Below are positions 1,574 through 14,587 of a DNA stretch of 29,587 bases, one piece after another. The position numbers and the translations under genes are program-made. Within the stretch, counting starts at the first letter, position 1. Each line of letters begins with the position of its first letter. This DNA is from a virus (lineage: Duplodnaviria > Caudoviricetes). The notes under the pieces are model-generated. The model had not been told where the DNA came from. It did not search any database and saw only the letters and a program-made list of their open reading frames with translations. The stretch is taken from positions 1-29,587 of IMG/VR virus record IMGVR_UViG_3300029448_000275; one strand, given 5' to 3'.

Positions 1574-1783
1574 ATGCACGTAAAAGTTAAAAATAACAAT
1601 ATTGAAATTGCATTGCGCATCTTTAAGCGTAAGTTAAAAGAGAGCGAAAAGTTAATACAACTTCGTAAACGTGAGCATTATGAAAAACCCTGTCAAAAAA
1701 GAAACAAAGCTAAATCAGCGGCAGTATTAAGAGAAAAGCGTAGACAAGGAGGTACAAATGGACTCAATAAGCCCCGAAGATAA
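1574..1783 (+). CDS. rpsU: Phage-encoded 30S ribosomal protein bS21
   Basis: VKVKNNNIEIALRIFKRKLKESEKLIQLRKREHYEKPCQKR matches the S21 signature ALRxFKR...RxRxxYEKP. Confidence 0.92.
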   Translation: MHVKVKNNNIEIALRIFKRKLKESEKLIQLRKREHYEKPCQKRNKAKSAAVLREKRRQGGTNGLNKPRR

Positions 1784-2003
1784 ACTTCAAATAGATGAAG
1801 CAAATTCAAAAACAGCTCAGTTTATTTTTGAATTGTTAAAAGATAAAAATCCTATGGTTGTTGCAGGTGTATTAACTGCTATGGCTTTGGGACTCTATAA
1901 AACAATACTCGATGAGGAAGAGTATGAAATAATGATCGACTCAATTAGTGAGAGTCGTCACGTAATTAATAACTTTGGAGCAGATATAAGGACATTGCAC
2001 TAA
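1758..2003 (+). CDS. Hypothetical acidic protein
   Basis: AGGAGG RBS; translationally coupled in the operon. Confidence 0.75.
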   Translation: MDSISPEDKLQIDEANSKTAQFIFELLKDKNPMVVAGVLTAMALGLYKTILDEEEYEIMIDSISESRHVINNFGADIRTLH

Positions 2004-2383
2004 TGACAAATAATCAACTAGTCGAAGAGTTTATGAGAACTTTTGGACAAGAAGTAAAACCAGTAATTGAATGGCCGGGACTAGATGTTGCAGCACTAAG
2101 GGTAGAACTAATTGATGAAGAACTTAAAGAATTACGTGAGGCAACTTTAAAACAAGATCTGGTTGGTATTGCTGACGCGCTTACAGACTTACTTTATGTA
2201 GTTTATGGAGCTGGCCATGCATACGGCATGGATCTTGATGTGTCTTTTGCAGAGGTACACCGCAGTAACATGAGTAAGTTAGATGAAAACGGAAAACCAA
2301 TCTATCGTGAAGATGGAAAGGTACTCAAGGGTAAAAACTACAGTCCACCGGACTTAGTAAAAACTTTATTTGGAATGCCATGA
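2003..2383 (+). CDS. MazG-like/PRA-PH nucleoside triphosphate pyrophosphohydrolase
   Basis: LIDEELKEL...DALTDLLYVVYG...EVHRSNMSK...REDGKVLKG motifs. Confidence 0.88.
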   Translation: MTNNQLVEEFMRTFGQEVKPVIEWPGLDVAALRVELIDEELKELREATLKQDLVGIADALTDLLYVVYGAGHAYGMDLDVSFAEVHRSNMSKLDENGKPIYREDGKVLKGKNYSPPDLVKTLFGMP

Positions 2384-2700
2384 TACATGTAGCCGCATCT
2401 GCACGAAGCAAACTTACAAAACTACATCTAACACCACCATGTATAGGTATTCGCATTCGTGTAGAAGATAGTGGCTGTAGTGGACTTGCATATGCTATGG
2501 AATATTGCTACAAGAAAGAAGAAACTGATACAGTAGTTCGTGCGGGCTCAAAACGATTGTATATAGATGCAAAAAGTATGCTCTATTTACATGGCTCGGA
2601 CTTACACTATCGTAAAAAAGAATTTGAAGAGGGATATGAGTTTACAAATCCCAATGTAACAAGTGAATGTGGCTGCGGAGAAAGTTTCTATGTCACATAA
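2380..2700 (+). CDS. iscA: Fe-S cluster assembly A-type carrier (IscA/HesB)
   Basis: GCSGLAY and FTNPNVTSECGCGESF motifs with all three conserved Cys. Confidence 0.93.
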   Translation: MIHVAASARSKLTKLHLTPPCIGIRIRVEDSGCSGLAYAMEYCYKKEETDTVVRAGSKRLYIDAKSMLYLHGSDLHYRKKEFEEGYEFTNPNVTSECGCGESFYVT

Positions 2701-2708
2701 GGACTAAT

Positions 2709-3095
2709 ATGGCTTACAGCGAAAAGGTAATTGATCACTATGAGAATCCCCGTAACGTTGGAAAGATGGATGCGACTAAAAAGAATGTCGGCACAGGTAT
2801 GGTGGGAGCTCCTGCTTGTGGAGACGTTATGCGACTTCAAATTGAAGTTGACAAAGGAATTATATCCGATGCGAAGTTTAAAACTTATGGTTGTGGTTCT
2901 GCTATTGCTAGCTCTTCTCTACTCACCGAGTGGGTCAGAGGCAAGTCTATTGATGAAGCTGCTTCAATAAGAAATACACATATTGCTCAAGAACTTGCAC
3001 TTCCACCTGTAAAAATACACTGTAGTGTACTCGCAGAAGATGCAATCAAGGCGGCAATAAACAACTACAAGGAGAAGCAGAATGGAACTGTTTAG
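2709..3095 (+). CDS. iscU: Fe-S cluster scaffold IscU
   Basis: MAYSEKVIDHYENPRNVG, GAPACGDVM, KTYGCGSAIAS and LPPVKIHCS motifs; start refined to the ATG at 2709 with an AAGGA RBS. Confidence 0.96.
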   Translation: MAYSEKVIDHYENPRNVGKMDATKKNVGTGMVGAPACGDVMRLQIEVDKGIISDAKFKTYGCGSAIASSSLLTEWVRGKSIDEAASIRNTHIAQELALPPVKIHCSVLAEDAIKAAINNYKEKQNGTV

Positions 3096-4665: not shown

Positions 4666-4989
4666 TTACTCTGCTCCTGACCCCGCAGCGGTTGCTCTTT
4701 CCAGTATAAATAATACTTGCTTCGGAGCTTTCTCCAATCCCTCCAACTGACTATCCTCTAGCCCTAATGCATATGCAATTGTTGTAACTAACTCAATTTT
4801 TGTGACTGGAGCGACCCCGCTCTTGGTTACATACACGTTTCGCTTGTACACTCCCTCTCGGGATAGTTTGCCAATTATAGACTTAGGACTCTTTCCTAGC
4901 TCTTCGGCTAATTCGTTTACAACTTCCATAGTAGGCTCACTTTCATACACGCCCACTATGTAGTCTGTTTGATCTTTTGTATAATTCAT
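4666..4989 (-). CDS. T5 A2-like DNA-binding protein (paralog 1)
   Basis: NYTKDQT...ELAEELGKSPKSIIGKLSREGVY...VTKIELV...LEGLEKA resembles T5 A2 (HTH-like N-terminal part plus C-terminal helices). Confidence 0.72.
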   Translation of the reverse strand: MNYTKDQTDYIVGVYESEPTMEVVNELAEELGKSPKSIIGKLSREGVYKRNVYVTKSGVAPVTKIELVTTIAYALGLEDSQLEGLEKAPKQVLFILERATAAGSGAE

Positions 4990-7219: not shown

Positions 7220-7564
7220 CTAAGAAGCAGAGGGTAGGACAGTCTGAAGCGCATTTACCAAGCGCTGAAGGTCGGCTTTTGAAGCCTTCACCAGCGAATC
7301 AACGCTAGTCCCTGTCAGAGACGCAATCTGAGAAACAAGCTCAGCTTTGCGAACAATGGTAGCACCAGACTTGGTGGTGCGCTCTTGTGCCTGATAGACA
7401 CCTTCACGAACGAGCTTAGCAATAATGCTACGCTTATTCTTACCAAGCTCTGCAGACAGAGCAGAAACAGTCTCCGAGCTAGGAGCTGCAGTGTATTCGC
7501 CTACCATGCGGGCGACCATCGCATCAGTGTAATTCGGTACACGAGCCGTAGTAGTTGCTGTCAT
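7220..7564 (-). CDS. T5 A2-like DNA-binding protein (paralog 2)
   Basis: NYTDAMV...LSAELGKNKRSIIAKLVREGVY...IVRKAELVSQIA...KASKADL; start refined to MTATT with an AGGAGG RBS. Confidence 0.78.
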   Translation of the reverse strand: MTATTTARVPNYTDAMVARMVGEYTAAPSSETVSALSAELGKNKRSIIAKLVREGVYQAQERTTKSGATIVRKAELVSQIASLTGTSVDSLVKASKADLQRLVNALQTVLPSAS

Positions 7565-7629
7565 AAATGCCTCCTGTGGCAATCATATAAATTAAGAATT
7601 TGTTAAGCGTTTTTCGATTTTATAAATGT

Positions 7630-7658: not shown

Positions 7659-7777
7659 GAACTTTTTTACGTTTTGGAGGAAAAATTGTGGCAATGAATT
7701 CCGGGGGGCCACGCGCGGGGTTGTCCTGTCAAGTTCTGTTTTCCCGAACCTTCCCAAATTTTCCAAAATCTGCGCAT

Positions 7778-7871: not shown

Positions 7872-7901
7872 TTGACAAGTTGCCGGCGGCAGGGGTATAA
7901 T
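7872..7901 (+). promoter_or_regulatory. sigma70 promoter firing into the repeat array
   Basis: TTGACA-18-TATAAT with an upstream A-tract. Confidence 0.72.
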
Positions 7902-7915
7902 GGGCGCGGCTTAAA

Positions 7916-8195
7916 AAATTCGCCGAACTACTACTCGGCTGGGCGCACATTAAATTCGCCGAACTACTACTCGACTAACTGAAAAAATTTCACAAGATTA
8001 CTACTGGACAAGCAAATAAAAAATTCGCCGAACTACTACTCGAGTGGGCGCAGACTACGTTATTTTATTTTTGCTTTTGCACCAAAAAACACTTGACAAA
8101 GTTTGTTCGATCGCGCACTATGGTGGGCGCAAAAATATTTCATAGAACTACTACTCGAGTGGGCGCAGAAAATTTCGCCGAACTACTACTCGACT
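7916..8195 (+). repeat. Direct-repeat array, core GAACTACTACTCG x5 (plus 1 degenerate), ~35-bp period
   Basis: Cores at 7925, 7961, 8030, 8145 and 8180; degenerate copy at 7996; extended unit AAATTCGCCGAACTACTACTCG; interspersed TGGGCGC. Confidence 0.9.
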
Positions 8196-8301
8196 GCAGA
8201 GACTACTGTTTTGTTCGATTGCACACTAGGTTGCACACAGAGCAAATGGGGGTAAGCGTTCACTTTCGCACTCGGGCGCGGCGGCGCCGAAATCCCTTTG
8301 A

Positions 8302-8314
8302 AATCAAGGACTTA
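8302..8314 (+). promoter_or_regulatory. IHF-binding consensus
   Basis: AATCAAGGACTTA fits WATCAANNNNTTR; the same 12-mer occurs at 10672. Confidence 0.6.
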
Positions 8315-9461: not shown

Positions 9462-9932
9462 TCATGCCGCTAACCTCTCGTTTAATGTAGTGCTATTATA
9501 AACCCGAATGCCCTCTGAAGTCAAGCCTTCTATAACAGAAATGTTATCATCAAACATTATCGCAGTAGAGCAAAATCGCGCCCATGATAACTCATATTGG
9601 CGGCAGAGTCCCACAAGCGCATAGAGTTTTAGCGCAAGATCGGGCATTGTGTTGCCCTCTGGCCTCGACAATATCGCATGATATTCTAGCCCATTCTGAC
9701 TTAGATAAAGATAGTCGGACGCGCTCATAACTCTCGCAGTGCAAACAATGACGAGCGAGCGAGTATAAGCCGACCGCATTTGCTTGGCAAGTGGTAGCAG
9801 TTTATCCGCCGCAATCTTTCGCGGTGTTGCGTTCGCTTGCCAGTACGCCAGATCAAGCGAACCATCTGCGAGATATCGAGTGCGCTCGGATGAATCGATA
9901 ACAGTGCCGTCGAGATCGAATATTTTAATCAT
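9462..9932 (-). CDS. HAD-superfamily phosphatase (T5 dmp/PseT-like nucleotidase)
   Basis: IFDLDGT, CTAR, conserved K and MFDDN motifs I-IV; start refined to MIKIF with a GAGG RBS. Confidence 0.85.
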   Translation of the reverse strand: MIKIFDLDGTVIDSSERTRYLADGSLDLAYWQANATPRKIAADKLLPLAKQMRSAYTRSLVIVCTARVMSASDYLYLSQNGLEYHAILSRPEGNTMPDLALKLYALVGLCRQYELSWARFCSTAIMFDDNISVIEGLTSEGIRVYNSTTLNERLAA

Positions 9933-10135
9933 GCTAGTAGCCTCATTAGTGAAGTAGAAAATCCTATTATACTCGCAATATTCAGAAAAATCAAATTCCA
10001 GTTTCTTTGCTCGTATGCTTGCCCAGTAAGAAGTGACAAGCCGAGTATAGCAAGATAAAAGCCGAGCATAGACGGCATCGAAAAAGATGCCGCCACCATG
10101 CAAAGAGCGCCCGCCCAACCTACAAGGGCAATCAT
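9929..10135 (-). CDS. Small multi-pass membrane protein
   Basis: Hydrophobic 68 aa; ATGA overlaps at both ends. Confidence 0.72.
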   Translation of the reverse strand: MIALVGWAGALCMVAASFSMPSMLGFYLAILGLSLLTGQAYEQRNWNLIFLNIASIIGFSTSLMRLLA

Positions 10136-10446
10136 GGGATTGCCTTGAGCAAGTTAATAAGCGCTTGAGCTTTTGCAAGCTCCAAACCCTCAAGCGAATC
10201 GTCAGTTGCTAGAGCGCGTTTGATCTCAGAAACCAAATCCGCTTTAGTAACAACATCGCCTTGAGTTTTACGCCTAGGCATGGACTCATACGGAATGCCC
10301 GCATTTTTTGCCTTGGCGACTATGCTCTTGGGCGAGCGATTAAGGGAAACGGAAAGCTCTTTAGCTTTCGCCCAGTTAAGGGGTGCGGCTTTGCGAAGTG
10401 TCGCCACCATGCCGTCGGTGTAGTTTCTGGGTCGGGGCATCTTCAT
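10132..10446 (-). CDS. T5 A2-like DNA-binding protein (paralog 3; first gene of the pre-early operon)
   Basis: NYTDGMV...ELSVSLNRSPKSIVAK...VTKADLVSEIKRAL...LEGLELAK; GAGGA RBS. Confidence 0.72.
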   Translation of the reverse strand: MKMPRPRNYTDGMVATLRKAAPLNWAKAKELSVSLNRSPKSIVAKAKNAGIPYESMPRRKTQGDVVTKADLVSEIKRALATDDSLEGLELAKAQALINLLKAIP

Positions 10447-10476: not shown

Positions 10477-10505
10477 ATTATGAGGGTTGCGGCAGAATAT
10501 GTCAA
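10477..10505 (-). promoter_or_regulatory. sigma70 promoter
   Basis: TTGACA-17-CATAAT. Confidence 0.75.
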
Positions 10506-10572: not shown

Positions 10573-10650
10573 GCAAGCAAGAATCGTGCCAACTTTTCGC
10601 AAGCAAGAATCGTGCCAACTTTTCGCAAGCAAGAAGCATGCCAACTCTTA
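10573..10650 (-). repeat. 3 x 26-bp tandem repeat, each unit a sigma54 (-24/-12) consensus
   Basis: Minus strand TTGGCACGATTCTTGCT at 10576-10592 and 10602-10618, and TTGGCATGCTTCTTGCT at 10628-10644. Confidence 0.85.
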
Positions 10651-10670
10651 AAAAATAAAAACTCCTTATA

Positions 10671-10683
10671 TATCAAGGACTTA
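10671..10683 (+). promoter_or_regulatory. IHF-binding consensus with 5' A-tract
   Basis: TATCAAGGACTTA fits WATCAANNNNTTR, preceded by AAAAAATAAAAA. Confidence 0.68.
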
Positions 10684-10685
10684 GG

Positions 10686-10715
10686 GGCGGTTCTTAAACT
10701 AGTTTCGAGACCGCC
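10686..10715. promoter_or_regulatory. 30-bp imperfect palindrome
   Basis: GGCGGT-tctt-AAACTAGTTT-cgag-ACCGCC, symmetric about 10700.5. Confidence 0.6.
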
Positions 10716-10832
10716 GCGCGGGGGTCACCCACACGTACTACTTAAAAAAATTTTTTGGTTTCTAACGTAACGTTATATCAAATTTGGTATACTCACCATA
10801 AGAAAATATCACATATTTGATATAAATATTAC

Positions 10833-11136: not shown

Positions 11137-11595
11137 ATGGCTAAAGAACTCACTACAATTTCTCCAGAAGGTATGGAGATAGCGAATAGTTACTTACAGT
11201 TTGGAAATATAAAAGCTGTAAGTCAAGAACTATGCGTATCAGAAGATAAAGTAGCGGATTTATTGAGTAAACGAGAAGTTAAGAAATATATTGATACTGT
11301 ATATCTAGATATGGGATACCGTAATCGAAATAATATAGCATCAGTTCTTGATGAAATGATTGAGTCGAAACTAGAAGAGGCACAGGAATCAGGCGTATAT
11401 TCAAGCAAAGATTTAGCAGACTTACTCTCAATGGCTCATAAGATGAGAATGGATGAAATTAAAGCTCAAGCAGATTTGGAAAAAGCTCAAGCAGGCAATA
11501 TTCGAACACAAAATAACGTACAAATTAATTCAGAAATACCTTTTGGACAAGGCAACTATGGTAAGCTCATGGAGAAACTCCTTGGAACTACATGA
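11137..11595 (+). CDS. terS: Terminase small subunit (T5-like)
   Basis: SPEGMEIANSYLQ...EVKKY...GYRNR...KLEE...AHKMRMDE resembles T5 TerS; start refined to MAKEL. Confidence 0.85.
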   Translation: MAKELTTISPEGMEIANSYLQFGNIKAVSQELCVSEDKVADLLSKREVKKYIDTVYLDMGYRNRNNIASVLDEMIESKLEEAQESGVYSSKDLADLLSMAHKMRMDEIKAQADLEKAQAGNIRTQNNVQINSEIPFGQGNYGKLMEKLLGTT

Positions 11596-11773
11596 CCTAG
11601 AAACTGTTTTTAGAGCACACGAAGCACAGTGCGAAGAAAGATGGAAAACTATTTTTACTCGTGTAGATGAGAATAGTAAACATCTTCAGCGTATTGAAAC
11701 ACGTATGCTTGGCATGGGAGGTACAATTATATTATTTTTAGCGGGAATCGTTGCCTCAGGTTATATGGGTTAA
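11582..11773 (+). CDS. Coiled-coil plus C-terminal TM protein (XhlA/holin-like)
   Basis: TTG start with a GGAG RBS; HEAQCEERW motif; C-terminal hydrophobic helix. Confidence 0.6.
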   Translation: MELHDLETVFRAHEAQCEERWKTIFTRVDENSKHLQRIETRMLGMGGTIILFLAGIVASGYMG

Positions 11774-11776
11774 GTT

Positions 11777-12220
11777 ATGCTTGCCGAAGTGCAAGCTGCG
11801 AATGCTGCTCTCAGTCAGATTATGAATTTGGTTAGACATGGACAAGATATATCACAAATGGCAGGAAGTTGTGCAGATTATTTTAATTCAAAAGCAATTA
11901 TTGCAAGATGCTCAAACAAAAAAGGAAGTAAGTCTCAAATTCAAACATTTATGGAGTTTGAGAAACTAAGACAACAAGAATACAAATTACGAGAGATAAT
12001 GATTTATTCAGGCTCTCCGGGAATGTGGGACAGGTGGTTAGAGTTTCAAAGAGATTGTAAAAGAGAAAGAGCTGCCGAAGCAAAGAAAAAGCGAATGTCA
12101 GACAAGAAAGAGCTCGAAGAAGTAATGTCATATGTAAAGATGTTCGGAGGATGCTTATCTACAATAGTTACAGTAATGATAGCAACTTTTGAAGGGCTCA
12201 AATATATGGGGTATACGTAA
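11777..12220 (+). CDS. Hypothetical protein with C-terminal TM
   Basis: ORF coupled in the late operon. Confidence 0.7.
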   Translation: MLAEVQAANAALSQIMNLVRHGQDISQMAGSCADYFNSKAIIARCSNKKGSKSQIQTFMEFEKLRQQEYKLREIMIYSGSPGMWDRWLEFQRDCKRERAAEAKKKRMSDKKELEEVMSYVKMFGGCLSTIVTVMIATFEGLKYMGYT

Positions 12221-12420
12221 TGGGTAGAAGAGTAAAACCAGATTATATACCAATGAGAATTAATCAACTATTAGAAGATCGGGATAAGGCACACGACGAT
12301 TATGATAAACTTTGGTACAATCGTATTATTCAAGAGCTAGACTGGGTACAGCAAGCTCAAGGCAGAAAGTTTAGACGAAACTGCTATATGGAGAATGAAG
12401 ATGCCATCACATTACGGTAA
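12220..12420 (+). CDS. Hypothetical protein
   Basis: TAATG coupling; WYNRIIQELDW motif. Confidence 0.7.
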   Translation: MGRRVKPDYIPMRINQLLEDRDKAHDDYDKLWYNRIIQELDWVQQAQGRKFRRNCYMENEDAITLR

Positions 12421-12547
12421 AAAGAAAAATGGTAAAAAGAAAGTTGGTAAGAAAAAGAAAAAAGCGAACGGTCTTACCGCCAAACAGAGAAAGCTTCCTA
12501 TGGCGTTGCAAAAGGCAATTCTTAGGAAGAAAAGGGCTAAGAAGTAA
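12401..12547 (+). CDS. Lys-rich 48-aa protein
   Basis: MPSHYGKKKNGKKKVGKKKKKANGLTAKQRKLPMALQKAILRKKRAKK; GGAG RBS. Confidence 0.72.
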   Translation: MPSHYGKKKNGKKKVGKKKKKANGLTAKQRKLPMALQKAILRKKRAKK

Positions 12548-12684
12548 TGCGTAAGACTTATCGAGGCAAACGCGCTCCGAAAGGTTATCATTTCATGCCT
12601 GGAGGCAAGCTGATGAAGGATAGTGCTCATGGCAAGAAAAAAACGAAGAAGCGCAGCAAAAAAAGTAAGAAACGTTCCTACTAA
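12547..12684 (+). CDS. Basic 45-aa protein
   Basis: MRKTYRGKRAPKGYHFMPGGKLMKDSAHGKKKTKKRSKKSKKRSY; TAATG coupling. Confidence 0.7.
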   Translation: MRKTYRGKRAPKGYHFMPGGKLMKDSAHGKKKTKKRSKKSKKRSY

Positions 12685-12811
12685 GCCTAAGTTGTATGCT
12701 TCAGTAAAAGCAGCAGCAAAAAGAAAATTTGCGGTATATCCAAGTGCATATGCTAATGCATGGCTTGTACGTACTTACAAGAAAAGAGGAGGTACTTATC
12801 GTCGTGGCTAA
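12629..12811 (+). CDS. Basic protein (DUF5872-like)
   Basis: PKLYASVKAAAKRKFAVYPSAYANAWLVRTYKKRGGTY motif; AAGGA RBS. Confidence 0.72.
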   Translation: MARKKRRSAAKKVRNVPTKPKLYASVKAAAKRKFAVYPSAYANAWLVRTYKKRGGTYRRG

Positions 12812-13085
12812 AGCGGGAGGACTCAAAAAATGGTTCAGCGAAAAATGGGTAGATATTGGTCGTCCAAAGAAGAAGGGTAAGTTTCAACCTTGTGGACGCA
12901 AAAAAGCAAAGAAAGGTAAAAAAGGTTACCCAAAGTGTGTACCTCTTTCAAAAGCTCGTAGTATGACAAAAGCGCAAATTAAATCGGCAGTGCGACGTAA
13001 GCGAGCAAAACCTCAAGGAGTTGGTGGAAAACCTACTATGGTTAAAACTTTTACAAAAAAACGTCGAAGGAGGGTCCGAAGATGA
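12804..13085 (+). CDS. Basic protein (GLKKWFSEKW...CGR...YPKCVP family)
   Basis: GTG start with a GGAGG RBS; highly Lys/Arg-rich. Confidence 0.72.
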   Translation: MAKAGGLKKWFSEKWVDIGRPKKKGKFQPCGRKKAKKGKKGYPKCVPLSKARSMTKAQIKSAVRRKRAKPQGVGGKPTMVKTFTKKRRRRVRR

Positions 13086-13312
13086 TAAAATACAAAAAAG
13101 GATCTCGCTGGATAGTAATTGATGACGCAGGAAAGATGCATAGCTTTTTTAAAGAAGAAGATGCTTCAAGTTTTGCAGGAGAAAGTAATGGCAAGAAAGA
13201 AGGATCCACGGCTAAAGCGGGCTGGAGTGAAGGGGTTCAACAAACCAAAGCGTACACCAAGTCACCCGAAAAAAAGTCATATAGTAGTGGCAAAAGTTGG
13301 GACAAAAATTAA
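13082..13312 (+). CDS. Hypothetical protein overlapping the next gene
   Basis: GGAGG RBS and ATGA coupling; the 3' 125 nt overlap 13188..13478. Confidence 0.5.
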   Translation: MIKYKKGSRWIVIDDAGKMHSFFKEEDASSFAGESNGKKEGSTAKAGWSEGVQQTKAYTKSPEKKSYSSGKSWDKN

Positions 13313-13478
13313 AACGATACGTTTTGGTCAACAGGGAGCAAGCACTGCTGGTAAACCAAAAGCAGGAGAAAGCGAAGCAATGAAAAAGAAACGTGCTTCA
13401 TTTAAAGCAAGACATCGTAAGAATATAGCAAGAGGAAAGATGTCAGCAGCCTATTGGGCTGATAAGGTGAAATGGTAA
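13188..13478 (+). CDS. Basic conserved phage protein (IRFGQQG...ASFKARH...SAAYWA)
   Basis: AGGAG RBS; start refined to MARKKD. Confidence 0.78.
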   Translation: MARKKDPRLKRAGVKGFNKPKRTPSHPKKSHIVVAKVGTKIKTIRFGQQGASTAGKPKAGESEAMKKKRASFKARHRKNIARGKMSAAYWADKVKW

Positions 13479-13549
13479 TGTGTGATTGTTGTGGTTGTGA
13501 AACTTGTGTATGTCCTCCAGAATGTCCGGATTGTGGTTGCAATAGTTGA
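13478..13549 (+). CDS. Metallothionein-like micro-protein (23 aa, 9 Cys)
   Basis: MCDCCGCETCVCPPECPDCGCNS; TAATG coupling; AAGGTG upstream. Confidence 0.65.
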   Translation: MCDCCGCETCVCPPECPDCGCNS

Positions 13550-13560
13550 AAGACTGGTTA

Positions 13561-13719
13561 ATGCAAAAAACTCAGCCATTTAGAGATTGGCAAGACACTC
13601 TACCTTGGCACAAACGTTTAATGGTAGAGTTAGCAAGTTTGATTGTTATTGTAGCACCAATTAGTTTTGTAATATATTTACTAACAGGGGATGTGTATTT
13701 ATTCTTCCCAAGTTATTAG
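13561..13719 (+). CDS. Small membrane protein (52 aa)
   Basis: MQKTQPFRDWQDTLPWHKRLMVELASLIVIVAPISFVIYLLTGDVYLFFPSY. Confidence 0.55.
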   Translation: MQKTQPFRDWQDTLPWHKRLMVELASLIVIVAPISFVIYLLTGDVYLFFPSY

Positions 13720-13728
13720 GAGTAAGGA

Positions 13729-14028
13729 ATGTCAGACATAAAAGTACCGTCATGGACGCTACCCATTCTTGCAGGAGTTATACCTGCATGTATTGCTTGG
13801 GGAACGATGCAGGCACAAGCTCAATCGACTCAAGAGGATCTTGATCGAATACGTGGTGTTGTGGAAAAAACTGCAGAGTCTGCACAAGAGACTGGGCAGT
13901 TGAGTAAAGTCAATGAAGCCAAAATAGAAGCGATAGTAAGTTCCCTAGCTGATCAAGCAGAAACAGCTAAAGAGTCTGATGAGAAACTACAGCAACTAAT
14001 TGAAATTATGCTTCAAAGAGCTAACTAG
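13729..14028 (+). CDS. N-terminal TM plus coiled-coil protein (possible i-spanin-like)
   Basis: AGGAG/AAGGA RBS; hydrophobic N-terminus followed by a heptad-rich C-terminus. Confidence 0.7.
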   Translation: MSDIKVPSWTLPILAGVIPACIAWGTMQAQAQSTQEDLDRIRGVVEKTAESAQETGQLSKVNEAKIEAIVSSLADQAETAKESDEKLQQLIEIMLQRAN

Positions 14029-14039
14029 GAGCATGAATA

Positions 14040-14276
14040 GTGTGGGCTTACGCCCTAGTTGTAATACTCTCAACAGGGGACGAAGCACCTCGAGTTTACT
14101 ATAAACATTTGGATCAGTGTAGGTGGCAGGCACAGGAACTAACAAGAGCATACAATAACTTTGTTCCAGCAAAATCAGCAGTATGCCATCCACACGTAGC
14201 AGGGCCGGATGATGTTCTGATAGACTTAACACAGAACAAAACAAAGCAAGAGTTGGAGGCGTTGTTAAACAAATGA
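14040..14276 (+). CDS. Secreted Cys-pair hypothetical protein
   Basis: AGGAG RBS; hydrophobic N-terminus; Y...C...AVCHP pattern like 3399..3590. Confidence 0.62.
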   Translation: MWAYALVVILSTGDEAPRVYYKHLDQCRWQAQELTRAYNNFVPAKSAVCHPHVAGPDDVLIDLTQNKTKQELEALLNK

Positions 14277-14587
14277 TGGTAAAAAAATTTGAAACAAAAA
14301 CTCGATACGCTCAATATGATATGGATGGAGACGGAGTAGTAACAGACGAAGAACTTTCAAGAGCAGGAGAAATGATTGAACTTGAACTAAGAGAAGAAAA
14401 AGCAGAAGCACAAAAAAGAATGGCATGGGTATCAATTGTAGCAATGTGTGCATACCCACTAATATCATTGATTATACCAGAAAGTAAGCTAGACACTTGG
14501 GGATCAATGAGTGATATGATATTTTTATCGCAGGCGTCCATAGTTGGTATGTATTTTGGTGCGCAGGCTTACATGGCAAGAAAATAA
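14273..14587 (+). CDS. EF-hand plus 2TM membrane protein (holin-like)
   Basis: Canonical EF-hand loop DMDGDGVVTDEE; two hydrophobic helices ending in GMYFG. Confidence 0.7.
   Translation: MMVKKFETKTRYAQYDMDGDGVVTDEELSRAGEMIELELREEKAEAQKRMAWVSIVAMCAYPLISLIIPESKLDTWGSMSDMIFLSQASIVGMYFGAQAYMARK

Follow-up and report, generated by a model that had tools for sequence, protein, structure and literature searches.

Tandem Sigma-54 Consensus Sites beside the Predicted Entry End of a Marine T5-Like Phage and in Many Unrelated Phages: Possible Landing Sites for Silent Host RNA Polymerase

INTRODUCTION

Enhancer-dependent sigma-54 promoters such as glnAp2, nifH, and pspA share a layout in which an upstream activator site (UAS) and an IHF site precede the -24/-12 elements. 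IHF also aids terminase at lambda cosB, where we know of no role for sigma-54, and one sigma-54-like promoter has been reported in phage YuA. Excerpts of a study on Escherichia coli (PMC4591121) describe a sigma-54 holoenzyme that needs no activator for binding and then remains shut, and consensus sites that are bound mostly without RNA; these silent sites are scattered on the chromosome, many are intragenic, and intragenic binding does not block transcription. In T5, arrays of DnaA boxes have been described in silico in the terminal repeat and the injection-stop region, with a proposed action on the DNA as it enters (Davison, bioRxiv 10.1101/866236, in excerpt). In phage PAK_P3, a 14-kb loop seen by HiC at 3 min connects the termini to a gene-free anchor (PMC13510664, in excerpt). 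Excerpts of three further papers, otherwise unrelated to the topic, indicate that rpoN mutants can resist phage via loss of flagella (PMC3391216, PMC7693777, PMC11877940). Searches of the open-access literature, mostly at the level of listings, found no description of tandem sigma-54 arrays of this kind.

The locus analyzed here has the two-block consensus, its spacing, and an upstream IHF match in common with enhancer-dependent promoters, but differs from them in that the site is present in three copies with overlapping footprints, no UAS is conserved, IHF is not co-conserved, a sigma-70 promoter lies downstream, and the array is located at a predicted DNA end. It resembles the silent sites of E. 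coli in its consensus and, like them, would be occupied mostly without RNA; unlike those sites, phage arrays are phased and occupy noncoding ends, and tandems are almost absent from prokaryote genomes. The T5 DnaA-box arrays are likewise boxes for a host protein in a noncoding part of a T5-like repeat, but the protein is a different one, T5 has no sigma-54 match, and the present array hugs the predicted entry end. An IHF match beside the terminase cut motif is common to this locus and lambda cosB, although the former belongs to a predicted T5-like direct repeat and not to a cos site.

RESULTS

The window, i.e., the whole stretch of DNA analyzed, is one 29.6-kb contig of a T5-like phage (an IMG/VR record that is ~31% complete), and it is contained in marine metagenome runs from 11 studies. 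RNA runs X19 and X20 contained 0.13 and 0.07 of its words, respectively. The plus strand harbors TerS, TerL, portal, protease/capsid, and tail genes, a T5-type terminase pair and head-tail gene order typical of T5-like phages (Demerecviridae), and TerL is ~50% identical to the TerL of Vibrio T5-like phages. The minus-strand genes left of 10446 include a dmp homolog and an A2-like gene, which T5 keeps in its terminal repeat according to the T5 record; here they adjoin the terminus motif, as in a T5-like terminal repeat (Table 1). The first gene gave no significant match when compared directly with T5 A2, and its paralog at 7220-7582 matches phrog_1725, the T5 A2 family. The window has three A2-like paralogs (10132-10446, 7220-7582, and 4666-4989), and no A1 homolog was recognized among the ORFs scanned, those of the predicted 3-kb repeat included. 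An operon at 1574-3095 carries genes for ribosomal protein S21, a MazG-like protein, and a NifU-like protein; the S21 protein is at most 49% identical to its counterparts among the matches listed, which come from 400 Gammaproteobacteria. The terS-terL interval (11595-14544) holds a run of small lysine-rich ORFs that differs in length between relatives, and a scan of the window gave no tRNA or Rfam matches.

Table 1 Features of the window (minus-strand features are read from the higher coordinate)
Feature	Positions	Strand	Basis or remarks
Conserved T5-like terminus motif	10684..10743	-	Alignment of relatives; fixed 51-nt span ACGTG...ACCGCC at 10736-10686
Imperfect palindrome	10686..10715		22/30 complementary; lies within the terminus motif; lacks conservation
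A-tract and IHF consensus match (10671-10683)	10653..10683	+	Directly behind the terminus motif
Sigma-54 consensus site 1	10629..10643	-	Pattern and weight-matrix score
Sigma-54 consensus site 2	10603..10617	-	Pattern and weight-matrix score
Sigma-54 consensus site 3	10577..10591	-	Pattern and weight-matrix score; implied start ~10565
Sigma-70 promoter match for first operon	10477..10505	-	11/12; between array and first gene
First gene, A2-like	10132..10446	-	37% identity with the paralog at 7220-7582 (E 2e-11); own phrog match weak (E 0.039)
T5 dmp homolog (pre-early phosphatase)	9462..9935	-	tblastn to T5 dmp, 43%, E 1e-13; phrog_415
Five 41-nt repeats (7912-8207) and second IHF match (8302-8314)	7912..8314		Candidate injection-stop-like region, judged from position
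Candidate far end of ~3-kb terminal repeat (end ~7706)	7693..7769		Conserved motif; blastn matches L003, L047, L053, L010, L080, L018
TerS (terminase small subunit)	11137..11595	+	phrog_3802, E 3e-39; transcription runs away from the array

A preliminary description of this DNA had reported three tandem 26-bp sigma-54 units on the minus strand that point into the pre-early operon, and our results bear this out. The units span 10573-10650, and the sigma-54 consensus pattern TGGC-N7-TTGC occurs in them on the minus strand with starts at 10643, 10617, and 10591 and nowhere else in the window. All three sites are oriented toward the minus-strand genes with the dmp and A2-like homologs, and all have the GG-N10-GC elements at the exact spacing of sigma-54 promoters. 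Scoring with an RpoN weight matrix gave near-maximal values of 21.5 to 22.1 bits out of a possible 22.8, with a matrix trained on prokaryote tandem hits (126 sites), themselves picked by consensus; the consensus is also similar to the E. coli ChIP-seq motifs, as excerpted from PMC4591121. A strict site arises by chance in 0.013 of simulated windows (2/150), and since the units are duplications, the three sites do not represent three independent events. Both flanks are covered by contigs of independent runs that break at the repeat, which indicates that the repeat exists; the copy number of three is that of the window assembly. A BLAST search of the array region against isolates returned only short matches at the level of chance.

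The location at the probable genome-entry end, which had also been proposed, is supported by the terminus motif. This motif is carried by 220 further loci (L444-L663); 33 distinct rows of relatives align with the position at which the T5 repeat is annotated to begin, and the record of Vibrio phage SJ1 has the same ACCGCC and stops 41 nt from its end. Because the motif is in register with both the T5 repeat start and the SJ1 record end, the left end, which enters first according to the T5 record, is predicted at ~10725-10727. The first sigma-54 site would then lie ~83 bp from the entry end, and the three sites would span 83 to 150 bp inside it. Contig depth lends weak support to the predicted end: it is raised over ~8.2-10.6 kb in 4/4 runs, about double in 3 of them, and single around 7.4-8.0 kb in two runs, these being depths of contigs, which cannot reveal DNA ends and are not a measure of copy number. 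The motif at 7693-7769 resembles, as judged by eye, the right end of the T5 repeat. In the candidate injection-stop-like region, two of the 41-nt repeats have hairpins; a perfect sigma-70 match precedes them on the plus strand (7872-7901), with no clear gene behind it. An estimated ~600 metagenome stretches carry the fixed-span motif, from which the left ends of marine T5-like phages can be predicted.

The 30-bp palindrome, previously regarded as the upstream activator element, had to be rejected in that role. It falls within the terminus motif, and the window contains 10 further 30-mers that pair as well as it does or better. The equivalent 30-mers in 116 distinct related termini pair at 2 to 16 of 30 positions, and in marine runs X1, X2, and X4 (3 of 4), the center of the palindrome (position 10700) is occupied by a different base at full depth. 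It thus lacks the conservation expected of a sigma-54 activator site.

The IHF consensus and A-tract next to it are present as described, but the match itself is ordinary, with 5 IHF matches in the window versus 3.2 expected by chance (60 simulations), one of which, at 8302, is nearly identical to that at 10671-10683. The IHF match is centered ~60 bp ahead of the start that site 1 implies, a position that fits this site only, and the relative L058 has an IHF match at the same position and no sigma-54 site. Transcripts from sites 1 and 2 would start at the first base of the next site, and only the start of site 3 is free. The sigma-70 promoter noted just downstream of the array was found again, as was the absence of an enhancer-binding ATPase: no PF00158 activator was found in the window, which belongs to a record ~31% complete, or in 5 array-bearing records.

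We then compared the sequences on both sides of the terminus motif in relatives. The 220 loci comprise 186 distinct ones, several of them near-duplicates; 116 have at least 400 nt inside the motif and 134 have as much outside. Sigma-54 sites occur inside in 13/116 (8 with two or more) versus outside in 1/134, IHF matches in 16/116 versus 5/134, and Fur-like boxes in 44/116 versus 0/134. Sigma-54 and IHF matches occur together in just 4 relatives, as 9 of the 13 with sites lack IHF and 12 of the 16 with IHF lack sites. Relative L490 has the same 26-bp sigma-54 triplet and no IHF match, and in it and L611 the sites begin 5 nt behind the terminus motif. A strict pattern with a terminus motif and a site within 30 nt matched 0 viral stretches although L490 has this layout, which indicates that the pattern was too strict. 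Among the closest TerS relatives, sites are found at 3/31 termini. These boxes vary and mostly occur apart behind the terminus motif, so the order in the window appears to be one draw from a mix-and-match cassette of host-type boxes rather than a conserved enhancer. The family can dispense with the array: 103/116 related termini and 7/13 isolates, including T5, are without it, and this counts against the role at entry that we consider below. Taken together, the palindrome within the terminus motif, the separate occurrence of IHF and sigma-54 matches, the overlapping starts, the intervening sigma-70 promoter, and the 103 termini without a site leave the classical enhancer reading unsupported, and with it both the complete UAS-IHF-promoter layout and the suggestion, likewise from the preliminary description, that the phage may gate its first genes on a host activator.

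Tandem sigma-54 arrays appear to be a general feature of many unrelated phages. An estimated ~420 viral stretches carry the tandem pattern (19/64 parts scanned), versus 1 for a control tandem pattern with a 5-nt core, and 596 Gb of prokaryote genomes gave 68 hits. In 120 array loci, not dereplicated, sites beyond the two that define the array number 232 with a 4-nt core versus 4 with cores of 0 to 3 or 5 to 7 nt; the largest arrays have up to 10 sites. Among 63 viral clusters, the 88 periods within the search range of 21 to 36 bp peak at 26-27 and 35-36 bp with none at 21-23 or 31-32 bp, versus 15/68 prokaryote periods at 21-23 bp. The spacing thus seems to prefer half-integer helical turns, and 26 bp would set neighboring sites on opposite faces of the helix. 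Periods above 36 bp showed no phasing, and candidate long-range peaks at 46-47 and 57 bp were discarded after they disappeared upon dereplication. Inverted sites are included in 17/63 clusters, and the L111 array points outward.

The 80/120 loci with long flanks form 41 clusters. A terminase gene is nearby in 26 of these, in varied families (14 arrays point away from it, 7 toward it, and 5 otherwise), and is not nearby in 15. TerL lies within 4 kb in 19/41 clusters versus 5/80 control loci (p 5e-7, same-cluster queries left out), with TerL queries drawn from array-bearing families and control loci not matched for habitat; only 1/68 prokaryote tandem hits is near a terminase. A tandem sigma-54 pair lies within the TerL reading frame at L144:4001-4051.

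We also scanned 13 isolates of our own choice. VpV262, PAK_P1, PaP1, SJ1, pVp-1, and PAK_P3 have matches, and T5, YuA, phiCbK, Lau218, LUZ24, LUZ7, and 14-1 have none; the promoter sequence listed for YuA departs from the search pattern. VpV262 has 5 sites at 173-346, beside an annotated repeat at 1-138 and followed by a long gap to the first gene. In SJ1, 13/13 matches are in or at most 250 bp from the inferred repeat. PAK_P1 has 5 sites within its repeat, as mapped in the excerpted Table S1 of PMC4309531, and others 12 kb away. Internal clusters are also found in PaP1, SJ1, and pVp-1, and the sites of PAK_P3, at 50798(-) and 50946(+), lie 12 kb from a repeat that itself has none; the DNA end is therefore not the sole location of arrays. 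The sigma-54 sites of SJ1 and pVp-1 lie among DnaA boxes, whereas in the predicted repeat of the window one DnaA box (8982) and no array of them was seen.

Both PAK_P3 (L441) sites are in a gene-free gap (50571-51080), which is ~12 kb from the repeat and near where the HiC anchor would fall. Site 50946 is followed by a sigma-70 promoter, the same order as in the window; such promoters lie ~50 to 75 nt after the array in the window, PAK_P3, L141, and L109. In the excerpted ONT-cappable-seq start table for PAK_P3 (PMC10914365; one phage, one study), the start at 48439 is followed by that at 51049, with no entry in the interval that holds both sites, while the sigma-70 promoter behind site 50946 fires.

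DISCUSSION

Our results raise the possibility, which we favor while rating it at somewhat less than even, that the three sites hold parked, nonfiring sigma-54 polymerase that grips and shields the entering end of the phage DNA. Among the uses suggested in the preliminary description, we retain the clamp that stable closed complexes would form at the leading end, with the physical end, the binding, the silence of these three sites, and the role at entry as the conjectural parts. Sigma-54 holoenzyme made by the host would be available at once and could bind the array without an activator. The 26-bp spacing would pack neighboring complexes on alternating faces of the helix, and the locked complexes would grip and shield the leading end during entry, while the sigma-70 promoter behind the array would likely make the RNA. 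Because the holoenzyme binds unaided and stays shut, it would act as a ready-made clamp for which the phage need not express any gene. The specificity of the sites, their packing, their proximity to terminase genes and termini, and a geometry that argues against firing are consistent with such a role at the entry end; silence is further suggested by L490, which has no IHF match, by inverted and outward arrays, by the gap in PAK_P3 starts, and by the lack of PF00158 activators in the records mentioned above. The shielding may be weak, since intragenic sigma-54 sites in E. coli do not form roadblocks and RecBCD evicts bound polymerase. The distance of the PAK_P3 sites from their repeat, the internal clusters of other isolates, the 15/41 clusters with no terminase nearby, and the lack of phasing above 36 bp likewise speak against a role at the entry end.

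The arrays lie near terminase genes in several families, sites come as close as 5 nt behind the cut motif (L490 and L611), and IHF matches are present at both predicted repeat ends (10671 and 8302). These observations would also suit a signal for packaging or repeat copying, in which parked sigma-54 polymerase and IHF beside the cut motif slow the motor or the fork and help terminase to cut. We regard this as rather unlikely, as the terminus motif is conserved but the array is rare behind it (13/116) and the internal clusters of PAK_P1, PAK_P3, SJ1, and pVp-1 are kilobases from the cut site. A true activator-dependent promoter, whose activation by nitrogen or envelope stress would gate or augment early transcription, is an unlikely explanation. 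The common orientation of the three sites into the operon, the distance of the IHF center from the implied start of site 1, the excess of clusters pointing away from terminase genes (14 versus 7), and the promoter reported for YuA, albeit off pattern, are in its favor, but it conflicts with a palindrome that is unconserved and belongs to the cut motif, the mostly separate occurrence of IHF matches and sites in relatives, the self-blocking geometry of sites 1 and 2, the sigma-70 promoter downstream, and the PAK_P3 start table, which, in the excerpt from that one study, lists no start at the sites.

The sigma-54 regulon includes psp and rtc, and arrays doubled by replication might titrate the holoenzyme and damp such responses of the host. 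Near-maximal scores, a spacing that permits co-occupancy, arrays of up to 10 sites, and a location in repeated regions would all suit such a sponge, an earlier suggestion that is weak for just three sites. We consider it quite improbable: the pool cannot be depleted by just three sites on each end that enters, there would be no need to hug the cut motif, and in E. coli 135 sites are bound as it is (PMC4591121, in excerpt). The short distance between array and sigma-70 promoter in the window, PAK_P3, L141, and L109 could mean that the array is a polymerase reservoir or architectural booster for that early promoter. With the long gap before the first gene of VpV262 and the existence of inverted and outward arrays, this seems very unlikely, and we know of no hand-over of core polymerase from a sigma-54 complex. 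Finally, the distant S21 matches point to no particular host and three A2-like genes are nearby, so that the motif might be bound by another protein, such as the phage terminase or an A2-like protein, and merely resemble a sigma-54 box. This is highly improbable in view of the exact two-block spacing and the flanks like those of E. coli ChIP-seq motifs, both found across families with different terminases. In addition, the six matching isolates infect Vibrio or Pseudomonas, which have rpoN.

Extended to the other phages, the parked-polymerase reading becomes doubtful, though not negligible: many unrelated phages may have evolved a noncoding landing strip for a host factor, on which phased, locked sigma-54 polymerase anchors and shields the end that enters first and perhaps loops to a second cluster ~12 kb inside, comparable to the 14-kb HiC loop of PAK_P3 (PMC13510664, in excerpt). 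If parked polymerase does serve at entry, sigma-54 would have a function other than transcription, and DNA sequence would be all that lytic phages need to enlist it within the first seconds of an infection. This would bear on the survival of unprotected linear ends at entry, on the role of T5-like terminal repeats in two-step injection, and on the anchor of the early PAK_P3 loop. The proposal is directly testable, as PAK_P1, PaP1, PAK_P3, VpV262, SJ1, and pVp-1 are cultured and carry sites, and the analysis has yielded a sequence motif that predicts the termini of marine T5-like phages.

Boxes of other kinds were also observed near these ends. Fur-like boxes lie in or just behind the terminus motif (for example in L018, L054, L065, L080, and L141), and in T5 (L202:9657-9690) and SJ1 the stop region combines them with DnaA boxes and LexA-like boxes. 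Behind the terminus, L054, L055, L058, and L065 have palindromic boxes of the TGGTAATATTACCA type in repeated copies.
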